Assembly (NCBI GenBank): GCA_048270185.1
Contig: JBLWTJ010000001.1
Coordinates: 1,024,001-1,088,000, forward strand
From: Bacteriovoracaceae bacterium
GTDB lineage: Bacteria; Bdellovibrionota; Bacteriovoracia; Bacteriovoracales; Bacteriovoracaceae
DNA: 64,000 nucleotides
Direction of reading: 5' to 3'
Positions 902-35,544 of the stretch are shown in pieces. The notes below the pieces were generated by a model that saw only the letters and a program-made list of their open reading frames with translations, was not told the DNA's origin and did not search any database. Positions within the stretch are counted from its first letter, which is position 1, and every line of letters starts with the position of its first letter. Made by a program: the position numbers and the translations under genes.

Positions 902-2818
902 TTATTCATTTGCCGTCTTTTTCAATTCTAAAACGACATCTCGATCGAGATCTTTAATCTTCTCAAACTTCAGTCCCATTTTCTTTAAAATAATACCATA
1001 AAGTCTTTCATGCTTTTTAGAAGTATAGACATAGACAGAGTCTAAGTCCTTATCCGCTTTAATTGAGGAGACTAATTGTTTTAGGAGTTCTTCACTAAGT
1101 TTTCGGTCCCCTAAATTTTCATCAACACTAAAGCGCACGGCCTCAGCAACTCTTCGGCCCTTCTTCCTTTCAACCACAACTCCCGTTGCCTTCTCAAATG
1201 GCATCGCTTCTTTTGTGGATTTAGATGAGACAAGGGCAAGCCCTCCCCGAATATTTTGAGGCTTATTTTTTTGTGTTGATACAAGTAAGACAGTACGATC
1301 TTCCATTGCCTTACTACTCTTAATAAAATTTGAAATTTCTTCGTCACTAAGATTTAGTCTCTTGCGATAGGTATCAGCAACAAAATTCCAATAATCATCA
1401 CTTAGCTTTGCTGCCTTTTTATCAGAATTCTTTAAATTGATTGCATAGTAATCCCCTTTATCAAGTTGGACTTTATAACCATGGCCCCCATTATTGAGAC
1501 ATTTAGATGATAAACAAAAATTGAGTTCTTCTAAGTCCTTGACTGAAGTAATAGGATCTTTAAGTGTTGCTTTCTTGGCGGTACTAACAGACTTAACAAC
1601 TGAGCCAATAGATGAAAATCCTACCCACGCAGACTCTGCAGCAAAGAGAAGAATATCATCACGATACTCTTGGCCACATTCAATATACTTTTGATAATAA
1701 CCTTGTTCTTTGGAGAGGATGAAATTATCAAGTAAAGCTTCACATTCTTTACTCTTTAATGGAAGTTCGATGGCCTCTTTTGCATAATAAGCTTTGGCCG
1801 AAAGACTTGCTGAACTTTGAGTTATTTTAGAAAATAACTCTTTTCGCATTCCCCACTTTGCGATACCAGCACTTCGAAGTCCCCAGACCCCTAACCTAAA
1901 AGCAGGGCCTGTAACAAGTGGAACAACAATAAATCCTGCTTCGATTGCTATATCTTTTATTTCTTCACTTTCAATATAATCTTTATTCTTTTGATAGAGA
2001 TGACAAGCTAATTTACCTGTCTCAGGATTACTTACCTCACTCGACCAATCAATTTCATTTAAGAGCTCATTAGTCACGTCATCAATTTTAATCCCACTTC
2101 CAAGAGCCTCTAAGAAATTTTTAAGCCGGCTCTCTCTTAATTCATTCGTACGTGAATTATTTGAGTAATTGAAATCACTTTCTTCTTGAATGAAGCGTGC
2201 CTTAATTTCCGATACTTTATCTTGAGCAGCACTTAAGTAATCAGAATATGTATTTACAAGTGATTGCTTGAATACTTTTTGATTATAAGAATCAGTTAAA
2301 ATTATCCCCTCTATATCTGGCCCTGCAAGGACAGGCCTTTTTGATAAGAGAAGTAATTTTAATTTCTGCAGTTGCTGAAGCTTCTCTTCAAGATCCACTC
2401 GCATCTTTGGAGTACAAACTCTGAAACATTGATTTAATTTATTTGAAGTAGTCTCTAGTTCTTTTGCGACAATACGTAATTGTTCAAAGTCTTCTTGGAT
2501 ATTATTAAATTGTTCCTCATACCACTGGCGACTTTCATGAGCTTCGACAAATCCACTACGCAAGAAACGTAACATTCCTTTATTATTATCAATTTCTGCC
2601 TGTAAGAAAGCTTTCTTCTCATTTGCTTTCTCAATAATCCAAGACCATTCACTTAAAGCGCTACTTTTTAATAAAGGAGTAGAAATTGATTTAGCTTCGA
2701 TACAGCTTAGATCTGACTCATTTTTAATTAAGTAAGCACACCTATTCTCAATTGAATCCGATGCGTGAACTTTTAAAAATAAAAGTAAAAGAAATAGAAG
2801 TCTTCCCAAAGATATCAC
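902..2818 (-). CDS. Secreted multidomain protein with C-terminal GNAT-like (FeeM/LuxI-type) acyltransferase domain
   Basis: Signal peptide (..LLLFLKVHA), coiled-coil N-half, two hydrophobic segments, C-terminal MPFE..VAEAVRFSVD..VYVYTSKKHERLY..MGLKF pattern. GTG start. Confidence 0.55.
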   Translation of the reverse strand: MISLGRLLFLLLLFLKVHASDSIENRCAYLIKNESDLSCIEAKSISTPLLKSSALSEWSWIIEKANEKKAFLQAEIDNNKGMLRFLRSGFVEAHESRQWYEEQFNNIQEDFEQLRIVAKELETTSNKLNQCFRVCTPKMRVDLEEKLQQLQKLKLLLLSKRPVLAGPDIEGIILTDSYNQKVFKQSLVNTYSDYLSAAQDKVSEIKARFIQEESDFNYSNNSRTNELRESRLKNFLEALGSGIKIDDVTNELLNEIDWSSEVSNPETGKLACHLYQKNKDYIESEEIKDIAIEAGFIVVPLVTGPAFRLGVWGLRSAGIAKWGMRKELFSKITQSSASLSAKAYYAKEAIELPLKSKECEALLDNFILSKEQGYYQKYIECGQEYRDDILLFAAESAWVGFSSIGSVVKSVSTAKKATLKDPITSVKDLEELNFCLSSKCLNNGGHGYKVQLDKGDYYAINLKNSDKKAAKLSDDYWNFVADTYRKRLNLSDEEISNFIKSSKAMEDRTVLLVSTQKNKPQNIRGGLALVSSKSTKEAMPFEKATGVVVERKKGRRVAEAVRFSVDENLGDRKLSEELLKQLVSSIKADKDLDSVYVYTSKKHERLYGIILKKMGLKFEKIKDLDRDVVLELKKTANE

Positions 2819-32246: not shown

Positions 32247-33212
32247 ATGAGTTTCACCGATCACCTGGTTCTCGCCCCCATTCGAGGCGTGACCAACTAT
32301 GTATATCGCAATGCCTTGGAGCAGACCTTTTCTGGCGCAGATAGTGCCATCGCTCCTTACATTGTAACGAAGGAATCAAACGAACTCAATGAGCGCCAAC
32401 TTCATGATGTGCTTCCCGAGAAGAACCTTCTGCCAACTACGGCCCAGATTCTGACAAAGGAAATTGATCAATTCCTCTATGTCGCCAATATCTACAAGGA
32501 CTTTGGAGTTAAGAAGGTTAACTTAAATATGGGATGCCCTTATCCTATGGTGGCCAATCGAACAAAAGGTTCAGGACTTCTTCTTCACCCTCAAAAAGTA
32601 GAAAAGCTTTTAACTGGAATAAAAGAAAAGTGTCCTATTGAGTTTACGGTGAAGATTCGCCTAGGGCGTGAGGATGTCTCTGAGATCAAAGAGATCATTC
32701 CTATAATTAATAAACTAGAGATCAATGATTTTACAATTCATGCTCGCTACGGAAAACAGATCTATGTTGGTGGCGTGGATCTTGATGCATTTGAAGAGTG
32801 CTTACCACTTCTAAACACAATCCCCTGCTATAACGGCGACATCAATTCAGTGGAAGACTTCAAAGCTTACAAGACAAGATTTCCCCAAATAAAACGCTGG
32901 ATGGTCGGACGAGCGGGTCTTTCAAACCCCGCCCTTATGGCCCAGATCAAGGGTTCAAAATTTAATGAGCAAACCTATCTGGCGAAATTCATTGAAATGC
33001 ATAAGCTTATGACTGAAGAATACCTCTCAATGGATAATGCCAAGTCTGACTATCTCCAAAAAATGCGAGGACATTGGCTCTACTTTAAAGATATTTTTGA
33101 AAACGAACACAAGGTTTATAAGAAAGTGAAAAAGGTCAAATCAATCGAACACTATAATGATGTCGTCGAGTGGATCTTTGAACAAGATCTTAATCCTTCT
33201 TTCTTGAATTAA
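32247..33212 (+). CDS. dus: tRNA-dihydrouridine synthase family protein
   Basis: LAPIRG, NLNMGCP, GSGLL, VKIRLG, IHAR, NGDI, MVGR. Confidence 0.92.
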   Translation: MSFTDHLVLAPIRGVTNYVYRNALEQTFSGADSAIAPYIVTKESNELNERQLHDVLPEKNLLPTTAQILTKEIDQFLYVANIYKDFGVKKVNLNMGCPYPMVANRTKGSGLLLHPQKVEKLLTGIKEKCPIEFTVKIRLGREDVSEIKEIIPIINKLEINDFTIHARYGKQIYVGGVDLDAFEECLPLLNTIPCYNGDINSVEDFKAYKTRFPQIKRWMVGRAGLSNPALMAQIKGSKFNEQTYLAKFIEMHKLMTEEYLSMDNAKSDYLQKMRGHWLYFKDIFENEHKVYKKVKKVKSIEHYNDVVEWIFEQDLNPSFLN

Positions 33213-33263: not shown

Positions 33264-34694
33264 CTAATTTGATTCACAAGTCCACGTATAAGTACCACTA
33301 CTAACCCAACAATCTTCTTTTGCATTATTAGGAATACCATGCTTAGCCATACATTCACCATGATAATATCCATCCTCTGTTTTTGTACAACAAGACTTCA
33401 CATCATCCCCCACACAATAAGCTCCACTTCCAGTAGGTGTCGGATTTGTACATGTTCTTGATCTAACATGTGATGTAGTATCGCAAGCTCCCCATTCACT
33501 CCAACCACCATCACGATCACACTCAAAAACATTACATGACTGCTGATATACACCACTACAATTAGTACCACCATTTGAAGGTGCAGGATTAGTACATGTA
33601 CGGGTCATTAAACCGCCGCCACAATCTTTGCTACAAGTAGACCAATCTGACCAACCGCCATTAACTGGACAAACTTGAGTATTACAGACTTCACTGGTAC
33701 TACCGCTACATTCGGCACCACCATTTTGAGGATATGGGTTTGAACAGCTACGAACGCGGATACCACCTCCGCATTGAGCGGAGCATACCCCCCATGCAGA
33801 CCAGCCACCATCAACTGCTTCTAACTCTTTAACGATAGGAATACATTTTAAAGTACCATCACTATTGATACCACTGACAACATGGTCCACGGGACAGTTT
33901 TGCTCAGAAAAATCACGACATCTACTATTTACACAAATTTTTGTTGTCGAGTTGATATCCGCATTTACATTTAGAGTACCAGTCATAGTGTCACCACTAA
34001 TTTTAACGTAGAGTGTATTTAGATAGTTAGTTACAAAATCAATGAGGTACTCAGTTGATATTGCATCAGACTTTGTTGGTGTAACTGAAGGATCAAAGTC
34101 AACAAGTATACATTTATTTGTAACATGATCGTAAACACCACCTATTTTCGTACAAGATTCAATAACGGCAGTATCCACCGCATTACCTAAAGCAGAAAAA
34201 CAAGATACTAACTTATTATTCTCATCTAAGTTAAATTCGACTGGATAACTTTTAACAATCTTTTTATTACCTTTTATTAATTTAGACATACGTTGCATTT
34301 CAACAACGAGCTTTCCCTCTCCAGCTTTCTGACTTGGACCAACAGTTACAGAGTTGAAGTCTTTCAAAGTCATGGATGCTATTTTGATCGTATTATTTCC
34401 ATATACGTTAGTAGTATTTAAAATATCATTATTTAACTTATTCTTTATACTTGATATTGATAGATCGTTAGTTAAAGTTTCACCAAGGCCAAATGTATTT
34501 ACACATGACTGATTATTCAGTAGAGCTTGCGCTATTCGACTATTAAGAGCATTCTCTTCGTACTTAGTCTCCATACGCTTTTGCGTAGTAACTTGATTAT
34601 GAGTTAAGTTCATAAATGCTACGGAGAGAACACCTAAGAGGCCTGCCGCAACCATAATCTCAACTAGCGTGAAACCTTTAATATTTAACTTCAT
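33264..34694 (-). CDS. Type IV prepilin-like adhesin with three C-terminal thrombospondin type-1 repeats
   Basis: KG|FTLVE class III signal; three (D/N)GGWSxWxxC..RxCxNPxP..G..CxG repeats; GGAG SD. Confidence 0.9.
33390..33815 (-). repeat. Three tandem TSP1 domain repeats (about 50 aa each)
   Basis: [18 protein letters not shown].., [18 protein letters not shown].., [22 protein letters not shown]. Confidence 0.9.
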
Positions 34695-34806
34695 TTACAC
34701 TCCAACCATAATTAGATATGTTACTGAACTAAATTTAATTGACAATAAATTTAACTTTTCTGAAAGTTTCTATTAAGGAACGTTTTTAAAGAAGGAACAA
34801 TTCAAC

Positions 34807-35544
34807 ATGCAGTTACGAGATCTCTTAATTAAGTACATTGAAAAGAAAGAAAAGACTTATGGAAAATACTCTCTCTCCAAACTATCCTTAGACACGGGCG
34901 TTAGCAAAACTACACTTAGCGGCTTTATAAATAAAGACAGAGTACCGAGCAGAGAAAACCTCTTCAAGATCGCTCAAACTGTTACAACAAATAAAGCTAT
35001 TCTAAAAAAGTACTCAACAGAGCTTGCAACAATAAAGCAAAGCAAACATAGAAAAAAAATCATTTCTTACAAACTTTTTAAAGAAATCAGTGACTGGGAA
35101 TATTTTGCAATCATTGGCTTAACACGCTTAAAGGACAATTCAGCAAATGAAGATTGGATTGCAGATAAATTATCAATTGAAAAAAGCAGAGCAAAAAAAT
35201 GTCTCAAGAAACTTCTTAAAGAAGGATTGTTAAAAATAAAGGACAACCGATTATATAAAGACTATAAGCATCTAGGAACACCTACTGAAATTTCTAACCA
35301 AGATATAAAAAAGGCCCACTCGCAAGCGATTAATTTATCAGAAGAGGCCATGTACACCATACCGTTTAAACATAGACAATACATAACATCAAATCTAACA
35401 ATAAAAGATGAAGACTTAGTAGAAGCAAGAGAGGAGCTAGACAAACTAGTTAAAAAGTTTATTAAAAAATATAACTGTGAAACAGAAGCTGACGCTCTCT
35501 ACAAGTTAAATATTCAATTCTTTCCATTAACTTCAGTAGAATAA
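34807..35544 (+). CDS. TIGR02147/DUF4423-type HTH regulator
   Basis: N-terminal XRE-like HTH, ISDWEYFAI..WIADKL, C-terminal LYKLNIQFFPLT. Confidence 0.85.
   Translation: MQLRDLLIKYIEKKEKTYGKYSLSKLSLDTGVSKTTLSGFINKDRVPSRENLFKIAQTVTTNKAILKKYSTELATIKQSKHRKKIISYKLFKEISDWEYFAIIGLTRLKDNSANEDWIADKLSIEKSRAKKCLKKLLKEGLLKIKDNRLYKDYKHLGTPTEISNQDIKKAHSQAINLSEEAMYTIPFKHRQYITSNLTIKDEDLVEAREELDKLVKKFIKKYNCETEADALYKLNIQFFPLTSVE

Follow-up and report, generated by a model that had tools for sequence, protein, structure and literature searches.

Within a 64,000-nucleotide stretch of DNA from a Bacteriovoracaceae bacterium (assembly GCA_048270185.1, contig JBLWTJ010000001.1, positions 1,024,001 to 1,088,000), here called the window, an uninterrupted open reading frame (ORF) on the minus strand (33264..34694, 476 residues plus stop, protein P0001) joins a type IV prepilin to three thrombospondin type 1 (TSP1) repeats. 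With modest confidence, its product is regarded as a pilin-anchored, probably trimeric, tip-swapping adhesion fibre, one member of a family in Halobacteriovorax-like predators. At the level of sequence, comparison with relatives shows the first ~287 residues to be a lineage-specific carrier, consisting of signal, first helix (alpha-1), pilin-like domain, neck and Cys knot, which is joined to interchangeable tips. An earlier note, made by a model from the letters alone, had placed a prepilin signal, a pilin-like domain, a Cys-rich linker and three TSP1 repeats in this protein, and all of them are present where it put them. It missed the predicted trimer, the size of the carrier family and the recurrence of pilin-TSP1 fusions, one of which stands undiscussed in a published data set. 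Modular pilins and predator adhesion fibres are already known and this gene is a variation on both; of greater interest is the carrier family as a whole.

The N-terminus displays a complete class III signal, with a short basic leader, Gly at -1, a hydrophobic residue at +1, Glu at +5 and a hydrophobic stretch. Pfam N_methyl matches at 23.3 bits (cut-off 21.2) and NCBIfam TIGR02532 at 18.4 (cut-off 16.3), and G7, L10 and E12 are invariant across 14 carriers. These matches and this conservation define the leader peptide MKLNIKG (residues 1-7, 34674..34694; all coordinates inside the gene are on the minus strand), with a predicted prepilin-peptidase cut after G7. The mature alpha-1 helix (residues 8-68, 34491..34673) contains F+1, E+5 and the hydrophobic stretch, is modelled by AlphaFold2 as helices 10-59 and 61-68, and is the region in which solved pilins, geopilin and TcpA among them, are matched through their own alpha-1 by the carrier profile. 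It is followed by a globular pilin-like domain (residues 69-195, 34110..34490), predicted as an antiparallel sheet with a helix at 168-183, whose conserved cysteines are C64, C165, C181 and C195. AlphaFold2 models were built for the full protein with 20 aligned sequences (mean predicted local distance difference test, pLDDT, 63.9) and for residues 1-286 with 14 sequences (mean 75.7). Both contain helix 10-68, an antiparallel sheet of four to five strands (82-167) and helix 168-183 at pLDDT 75-94, then a second helix (214-228), a stretch below pLDDT 50 (232-246) and small hairpins (252-285).

In a wide fold search, among many matches to a single helix, the matches that cover the domain include XcpW (Z 5.0), GspK (Z 5.0), TTHA1218 (Z 4.7) and PilE (Z 4.7), none of which reaches the Z of 8 from which the tool is trusted; of the five best, four are minor pilins or pseudopilins. 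These weak matches are consistent with a minor-pilin fold. The matches to named minor-pilin families in NCBIfam lie in the first ~60 residues and are all sub-threshold (ComGE 20.9 vs 49, GspI 19.8 vs 44.35, GspH 14.1 vs 80). The label PilV-like, which had been given to the protein earlier, is rejected, as no PilV family matches and only the ComGE, GspI and GspH models touch the N-terminal helix. The globular domain is kept whole throughout the family, with its invariant Cys pairs and well beyond the signal, which suggests a packing role in a filament.

The carrier is common within its own lineage. A protein search of 237 genomes from the same GTDB family gives matches at E <=1e-10 in 74, the own genome included. 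Many of these are limited to residues 4-287, at 35-46% identity, in ORFs of 350-600 residues, and some genomes hold three or four carrier ORFs in tandem. Counting genomes by a carrier profile at E <=1e-25, the carrier is present in 45 of 100 sampled genomes of the family and 8/8 of the genus, vs 1 of 300 from the phylum's other families. The same profile finds 234 proteins at E <=1e-30 among 1.84 billion cluster representatives; a word-index search with residues 1-290 gave only seven proteins, which the profile search identifies as a limit of that method. The extracted relatives share the signal, the cysteines of the pilin-like domain, a neck of the form AVSTxYLxD...YVxxxGDTMTGxL and a knot of the form CVxGxCRxF...CPxGxVxxINxDGxxxC, beyond which divergence is complete. 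The earlier description of an exchangeable binding module is borne out by these shared residues and differing C-termini. One of four tandem carrier genes in another genome (G161:C9:87672-88517) has an in-frame TAG near its start, within the profile match, which may be a start-site effect or mark a broken copy.

The tips themselves were surveyed by Pfam scans, at E <=1e-4 and E <=1e-5, of 143 of the best 150 carrier representatives, P0024 and six proteins of 2,300-5,100 residues being excluded. Peptidase_S74 is found in 15 and TSP_1 in five; most have no known C-terminal family and are Cys-rich. S74 is described as the trimerisation chaperone of phage fibres in the text of PMC10769870. One relative from the family genomes (L038) has an S74 C-terminus (7.9e-17) and many matches to tail-fibre families of PHROG, and Halobacteriovorax proteins with N_methyl and S74, which also help to place the bacterium, are annotated 'tail fiber domain-containing protein'. 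Other fusions are also seen: of the carrier representatives P0196 and P0209 (623 residues each), one has a Hint-type domain for intein splicing at its end (36.5 bits, cut-off 35.8) and the other has a family-2 glycosyltransferase ahead of the carrier (carrier match 328-545).

Between the pilin-like domain and the tip lies a tail-fibre-like neck (residues 196-250, 33945..34109), which includes AISTEYL, holds a 15-residue GDTMTG-type segment at 229-243 and is, from the trimer model, the predicted trimer interface. A Cys knot follows (residues 251-286, 33837..33944), containing CVNSRCRDF and defined by conservation in the carrier alignment; its C254, C259, R260, C267, G280 and C284 are invariant in 14 carriers, and many relatives carry the knot unit several times over. 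GDTMTG had been called a phage tail-fibre-type motif from the outset. For this protein the likeness is weak, with all three PHROG matches of the neck alone falling on tail-fibre families at E 0.042-0.069; it is stronger through the relatives that end in S74, and the necks of two relatives reach E 0.0018. Against the PDB, the carrier profile matches a chain of a T4-like long tail fibre (9f4a, E 0.012). The neck unit (...FDxRYVNxSGDTMTGxL...) is also repeated in very large proteins, P0172 (4738 residues, 22 GDTMTG units) and five further representatives of 2,300-5,100 residues, which makes the motif a general building block of long bacterial fibres.

Modelling of three copies of residues 196-295 gave a score of 0.89, whereas none of three controls scored above 0.00. 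At least 93% of contacts are common to the runs, partner pLDDT is 83 or more, and the contacts centre on residues 229-260, the GDTMTG stretch that is disordered in the monomer models. The pass mark was reached by 20/30 solved pairs vs 1/23 single chains in calibration, counts which are only rough here, as they were made with two copies and other alignments and this run used three copies and its own alignment. The formation of a homotrimer through residues 196-295 is thus supported in silico.

Modular pilins, an established class, offer one precedent. In this class, surveyed by Raynaud et al. (2021, PMC8179133) and including PilB and PilC of Streptococcus sanguinis, a functional module is grafted onto a pilin module. 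Dataset S1 of the survey lists a pilin with two TSP1 domains (IPR012902-IPR000884-IPR000884) once and a pilin with S74 (IPR012902-IPR030392) 29 times; these architectures are counted without analysis and thrombospondin has no mention in the main text. The protein studied here resembles modular pilins in that an N-terminal pilin module carries a functional module. It differs in that the carrier is a much larger conserved unit of pilin, neck and Cys knot, is predicted to be trimeric and belongs to a big tip-swapping family in one predator lineage.

On this precedent, and in line with the earlier note, the protein could instead be a monomeric modular minor pilin, present through its pilin module as single copies at the pilus tip or in the shaft with the TSP1 array dangling as a flexible adhesin, as has been proposed for PilB of S. 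sanguinis. The class III signal and pilin-like fold are what such a protein would have, modular pilins are widespread with the one pilin and two TSP1 architecture in Dataset S1 of PMC8179133 among them, and other pilin-TSP1 fusions (P0097 and G036/L058) lack the GDTMTG neck. However, the neck is disordered in the monomer models but yields a confident trimer prediction, and carriers of the same family end in the S74 trimer chaperone. A monomeric minor pilin is accordingly considered unlikely, and the trimeric pilin-anchored fibre is retained as the preferred description.

The tip of P0001 begins after the Cys knot. Pfam TSP_1 matches it with E 1.3e-13 and 51.4 bits (cut-off 21.6) in three stretches, and TSP1_spondin with 43.5 bits (cut-off 41); both N_methyl and TSP_1, the two families that the earlier note expected, are thus above their cut-offs. 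TSP_1 occurs in no other ORF of the own 3.35-Mb genome and the same search is positive in 0/14 control genomes, so the match is not due to chance. All three repeats have the form GGWSxW...C. The hallmarks of TSP1 are WxxW and RxR layers and six cysteines per repeat. Repeat 1 (residues 296-342, 33669..33809) has 47 residues, six Cys, WSAW and RVR, with a best Pfam stretch of 297-342 and a whole-genome TSP_1 match of 34.2 bits. Repeat 2 (residues 346-392, 33519..33659), found by Pfam and with a whole-genome match of 32 bits, also has 47 residues, six Cys, WxxW and RxR. Repeat 3 (residues 396-437, 33384..33509; third Pfam stretch, with an envelope of 396-440 in a custom hidden Markov model) is degenerate, keeping WSEW and RSR without the CxxCGGG cysteine pair. 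By Foldseek, the full model matches a TSR crystal structure (3r6b, E 3e-3, probability 0.98), the TSR rows being weak.

The protein ends in a Cys-rich tail (residues 438-476, 33267..33383, ending TWTCESN), which matches no Pfam family and is, on conservation, the candidate distal tip. In the only close orthologue of the TSP1 end, from family genome G070, identity is 64% over residues 191-476. The tail is the best conserved segment, with 31/39 residues identical (79%), against 57-72% in the TSP repeats. As the tail is better conserved, the repeats may serve chiefly as a stalk, with the tail as the binding head. The orthologue itself (L013, G070:C1:69751-72888, 3-812 on the minus strand) lacks its 5' half, its frame opening inside the linker that follows the pilin. 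Just upstream and on the opposite strand is a transposase-like ORF of 270 residues (1156-2043, plus strand), and the G070 copy has the look of what an insertion element left behind.

Three further systems share parts of this design. The mosaic adhesive trimer (MAT) fibres of Bdellovibrio bacteriovorus have a conserved N-terminus, variable tips, S74 and non-S74 subfamilies and a trimeric state, with an N-terminal beta-rich domain of ~130 residues after an ordinary signal peptide, as set out in the text of Caulton et al. (2024, PMC10769870). The carrier family resembles them as a product of a same-phylum predator with a conserved cell-proximal end, diversified tips, S74 and non-S74 subfamilies, likeness to phage tail fibres and, here in silico, a trimer. 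The anchor, compared by description only, differs, being a prepilin-type alpha/beta module here and a beta-rich domain in MAT. With a prepilin signal, long helix and sheet at its N-terminus, the protein is not filed as a MAT member. The word pilin does not occur in the available text of PMC10769870, and the readable part of its supplement has no thrombospondin or pilin entry, one supplement file being unreadable; within this material no MAT tip with TSP1 came to light.

CofB, in the available text of PMC6048534, is a homotrimeric tip minor pilin in which beta-rich domains trimerise and carry an H-type lectin tip, and which caps and initiates the pilus. P0001 resembles the type IVb minor pilins CofB and TcpB in the order of its parts, a pilin-like domain followed by a predicted trimerising part with a putative binding tip. 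The CofB gene, in contrast, belongs to a type IVb pilus operon and the tip of its product is an H-type lectin, whereas this gene is an orphan with a phage tail-fibre-type neck. A sequence likeness between the protein and CofB was not found and it is not filed as a CofB homologue. Phage tail fibres and spikes share the neck motif YVxxxGDTMTGxL, which matches only tail-fibre families and 9f4a, and the S74 ends of carrier relatives. Unlike them, the protein has no S74, is encoded on the chromosome and starts with a prepilin signal. Literature searches combining thrombospondin with Bdellovibrio, and TSR with bacterial or pilin, returned only type 3 repeats or unrelated papers.

The gene has a GGAG ribosome-binding site, read from the sequence, 5 nt 5' of the ATG (34700..34703, minus strand). 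A promoter-like site at 34745-34718 upstream of it is not above chance; the promoter scan gave 6 promoter-like sites vs 6.5 expected and the terminator scan gave 0 terminators. The carrier-TSP1 fusion is real and not an assembly chimera, as contigs of an independent seawater run (X3) tile the entire gene with few substitutions and one of them spans 33474-34035 and with it the point near 33821 where carrier and TSP1 part meet. Coverage of the gene stretch by runs X6 and X7 is in parts only. The gene is detected in runs labelled as marine plastic-surface and seawater metagenomes, and none of the runs listed as containing it is an RNA run.

The genes around it code for Dus, a DUF4423/HTH regulator, a histidine kinase and its response regulator, and a P-type ATPase, in agreement with the earlier remark that the gene stands apart from any pilus operon. 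No phage genes lie near it. The regulator (34807-35544, plus strand; DUF4423 and HTH_3, E 1.9e-32) is divergent and 112 nt from the pilin-type gene, which it could control. In five same-genus genomes (L051-L055) dus (32247-33212) is kept at 79-97% protein identity, and both of its flanks differ from the window at the DNA level, dus alone being shared. The pilin-type gene hence lies in a variable neighbourhood. A tip swap at one fixed locus could not be shown in the synteny comparison of these five genomes.

Elsewhere in the 3.35-Mb genome are two Peptidase_A24 (prepilin peptidase) genes, a 191-residue major pilin gene close to one of them, a pseudopilin cluster of a type II secretion system and genes for two S74 fibres of the classical kind, 1179 and 1530 residues long, each with a lipoprotein signal. 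Further orphan large prepilin-type ORFs (255, 389, 402, 435 and 689 residues) have near-identical N-termini and differing C-termini. Two of these paralogues, L005 (389 residues, G000:C1:~498514) and L004 (435 residues, C2:~307133), are orphans with a common KGFTLAE...VVAAG N-terminus. L005 ends in three GGxGGxxF...CPAG...GRSGSxIDRIGxxC units, lectin-like in appearance.

This setting lends itself to a second alternative, in which the prepilin N-terminus has no role beyond export and anchoring, either by way of the pilus or type II secretion machinery or as a stub in the membrane, and the trimer is displayed on the cell body like MAT. The gene is an orphan with no pilus neighbours, the pseudopilin cluster is at hand, the S74 lipoprotein fibres make surface fibres part of the repertoire of this bacterium, and MAT fibres are surface-displayed according to the text of PMC10769870. 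Yet the entire pilin globular domain is conserved with its invariant Cys pairs, beyond what a signal comprises, and CofB, as described in PMC6048534, shows that trimeric pilins do cap pili. A fibre outside the pilus is therefore judged improbable, to the same extent as the monomeric minor pilin, and the fibre is more readily pictured as seated on a pilus through its pilin module.

The origin of the TSP1 repeats was earlier described as animal-type and possibly eukaryotic, with the domain rare in bacteria. In this phylum TSP_1 is not rare, being present in 43/401 sampled genomes from six families, and in 8/100 other genomes of the own family. There its hosts are unrelated secreted proteins, namely a trypsin-like protease, a giant protein, another in which the repeat occurs at least eight times, and a conserved family of 390-470 residues. 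Members of the last (L036, L039, L040 and L043 in G152, G140, G145 and G062) have a signal peptide, an N-domain of ~200 residues, one or two TSP1 repeats and a conserved C-domain, without a pilin part. Fusion to pilins has also recurred. In G036/L058 the linker is different and the GDTMTG neck is absent, and two ORFs of G258, from another family of the phylum, join TSP1 to a pilin-like N-terminus without Glu5. The metagenome proteins P0008, P0024, P0070 and P0097, of which P0097 has no GDTMTG neck, and five carrier representatives also combine pilin-type and TSP1 parts.

The repeats resemble those of animal proteins such as thrombospondin-1, properdin, coadhesin and hemicentin in their TSP_1 score above cut-off and, in repeats 1 and 2, in WxxW, RxR and six Cys. 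They differ in length, in the two Cys missing from repeat 3 and in their bacterial context. Repeat lengths here are 47, 47 and 45 residues; among 413 repeats of animal-labelled matches, 219 have the usual 54 residues and one has 47, vs 6/19 with 47 in pilin-type proteins. Identity is highest to repeats of the G070 orthologue (69-72%), of P0097 (64%) and of unlabelled proteins with 47-residue repeats (61-68%). These unlabelled proteins look bacterial, having for example lipoprotein signals, vWA domains and Cys-rich repeats. For animal repeats identity is at best 55-61%, and indels are needed. In P0027, P0028, P0067, P0093, P0112 and P0115, also from metagenomes, a uniform 47-residue subtype, GGWSxWxxCSxxCGGGxQxRxCxNPxPxxGGxxCxGxxxQxCNTQxC, occurs in tandem in bacterial-looking secreted proteins, and this subtype may deserve its own family model.

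GC at third codon positions (GC3) is 0.215 in the TSP part, 0.259 in the carrier and 0.299 +/- 0.041 in 24 window genes, and the codon usage of the TSP part is host-like. The raised GC of 33500-33999 might have pointed to foreign DNA, a reading that is rejected; as GC3 is low, the rise stems from amino-acid composition. A tree of 162 repeats has been built from every own, pilin-type, genome-derived and short-form row, to which were added 25 unlabelled repeats drawn at random and, from 55 animal-labelled proteins, a single randomly chosen repeat each. It has strong support on 4/158 inner branches, and no origin, the deep one included, is readable from it. These sequence data lend no support to a recent origin of the repeats in animals, and there is no sign of recent transfer. 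Recent acquisition from an animal or other eukaryote, with the module aimed at animal or algal surfaces and not at bacterial prey, is thus very improbable: most matches listed for the C-terminal third are marine invertebrate TSR proteins, e.g. coadhesin and hemicentin, and the gene is present in marine plastic-surface and seawater runs, but the spread of TSP_1 through the phylum and through unrelated secreted proteins of the family, the near absence of the 47-residue form from animal-labelled repeats, the closer identity to the orthologue, P0097 and bacterial-looking proteins, and the low GC3 all speak against it.

For the pilin-anchored trimeric fibre, the following course of events is proposed. 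Prepilin peptidase would cut after G7, three chains would join through the neck into a fibre and their three pilin modules would seat it on a type IV filament. Its likeliest position would be that of a trimeric cap or initiator at the pilus tip, comparable to CofB and TcpB. Disulfide-locked TSP1 rods would keep the tail away from the cell, and repeats and tail together may bind a polymer of the prey surface, with a glycan as the most likely, putative ligand. The swapping of tips among paralogues could then diversify what the predator grips. As a whole, the family would work like the MAT fibres of B. bacteriovorus, with the pilin module as cell-proximal anchor.

Several observations weigh against this interpretation. 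The pilin fold matches are weak (Z at most 5.0), the top match of the same search is a baseplate protein of a type VI secretion system (Z 5.3), and Foldseek against the PDB, run on the full model and on residues 1-286, has no match at E <=0.001. The TSP1 part is modelled at low confidence (pLDDT about 30-60), probably because the alignment had few TSP1 rows. The trimer pass may reflect the memory of the model for phage fibres with the same motif. No pilus or minor-pilin gene lies next to this orphan gene, and 20 ORFs scanned in the neighbourhoods of two tandem carrier arrays (G162 and G056) include no pilus-assembly family. Finally, a TSP1 tip on this carrier is rare, occurring in 2/237 family genomes, one of them with the 5'-truncated copy beside a transposase gene.

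A broader scenario is offered tentatively, as a possibility and not an expectation. In marine predators of the Halobacteriovorax lineage, trimeric adhesins of the phage tail-fibre type may have become joined directly to a type IV pilin, so that a retractile pilus bears interchangeable prey-recognition tips in the form of S74 fibres, TSP1 rods and many Cys-rich heads. TSP1 would in that case be a native bacterial module of short subtype, acting as stalk or in glycan binding, and no loan from animals. The domain is usually seen as an animal and apicomplexan adhesion domain; the secreted proteins of one bacterial phylum are shown here to include it regularly.

How predators recognise and hold their prey is still largely an open question. 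Type IV pili are needed for predation and MAT fibres bind prey glycans, and we know of no link shown between the two. If the proposal is true, pilin-fused fibres would physically connect pili with MAT-type fibres, the point that was left open by Caulton et al. With pilin module, trimerising neck and swappable tips in one polypeptide, this link between pilus and fibre would become directly testable, and the carrier family would supply a natural library of binding heads.

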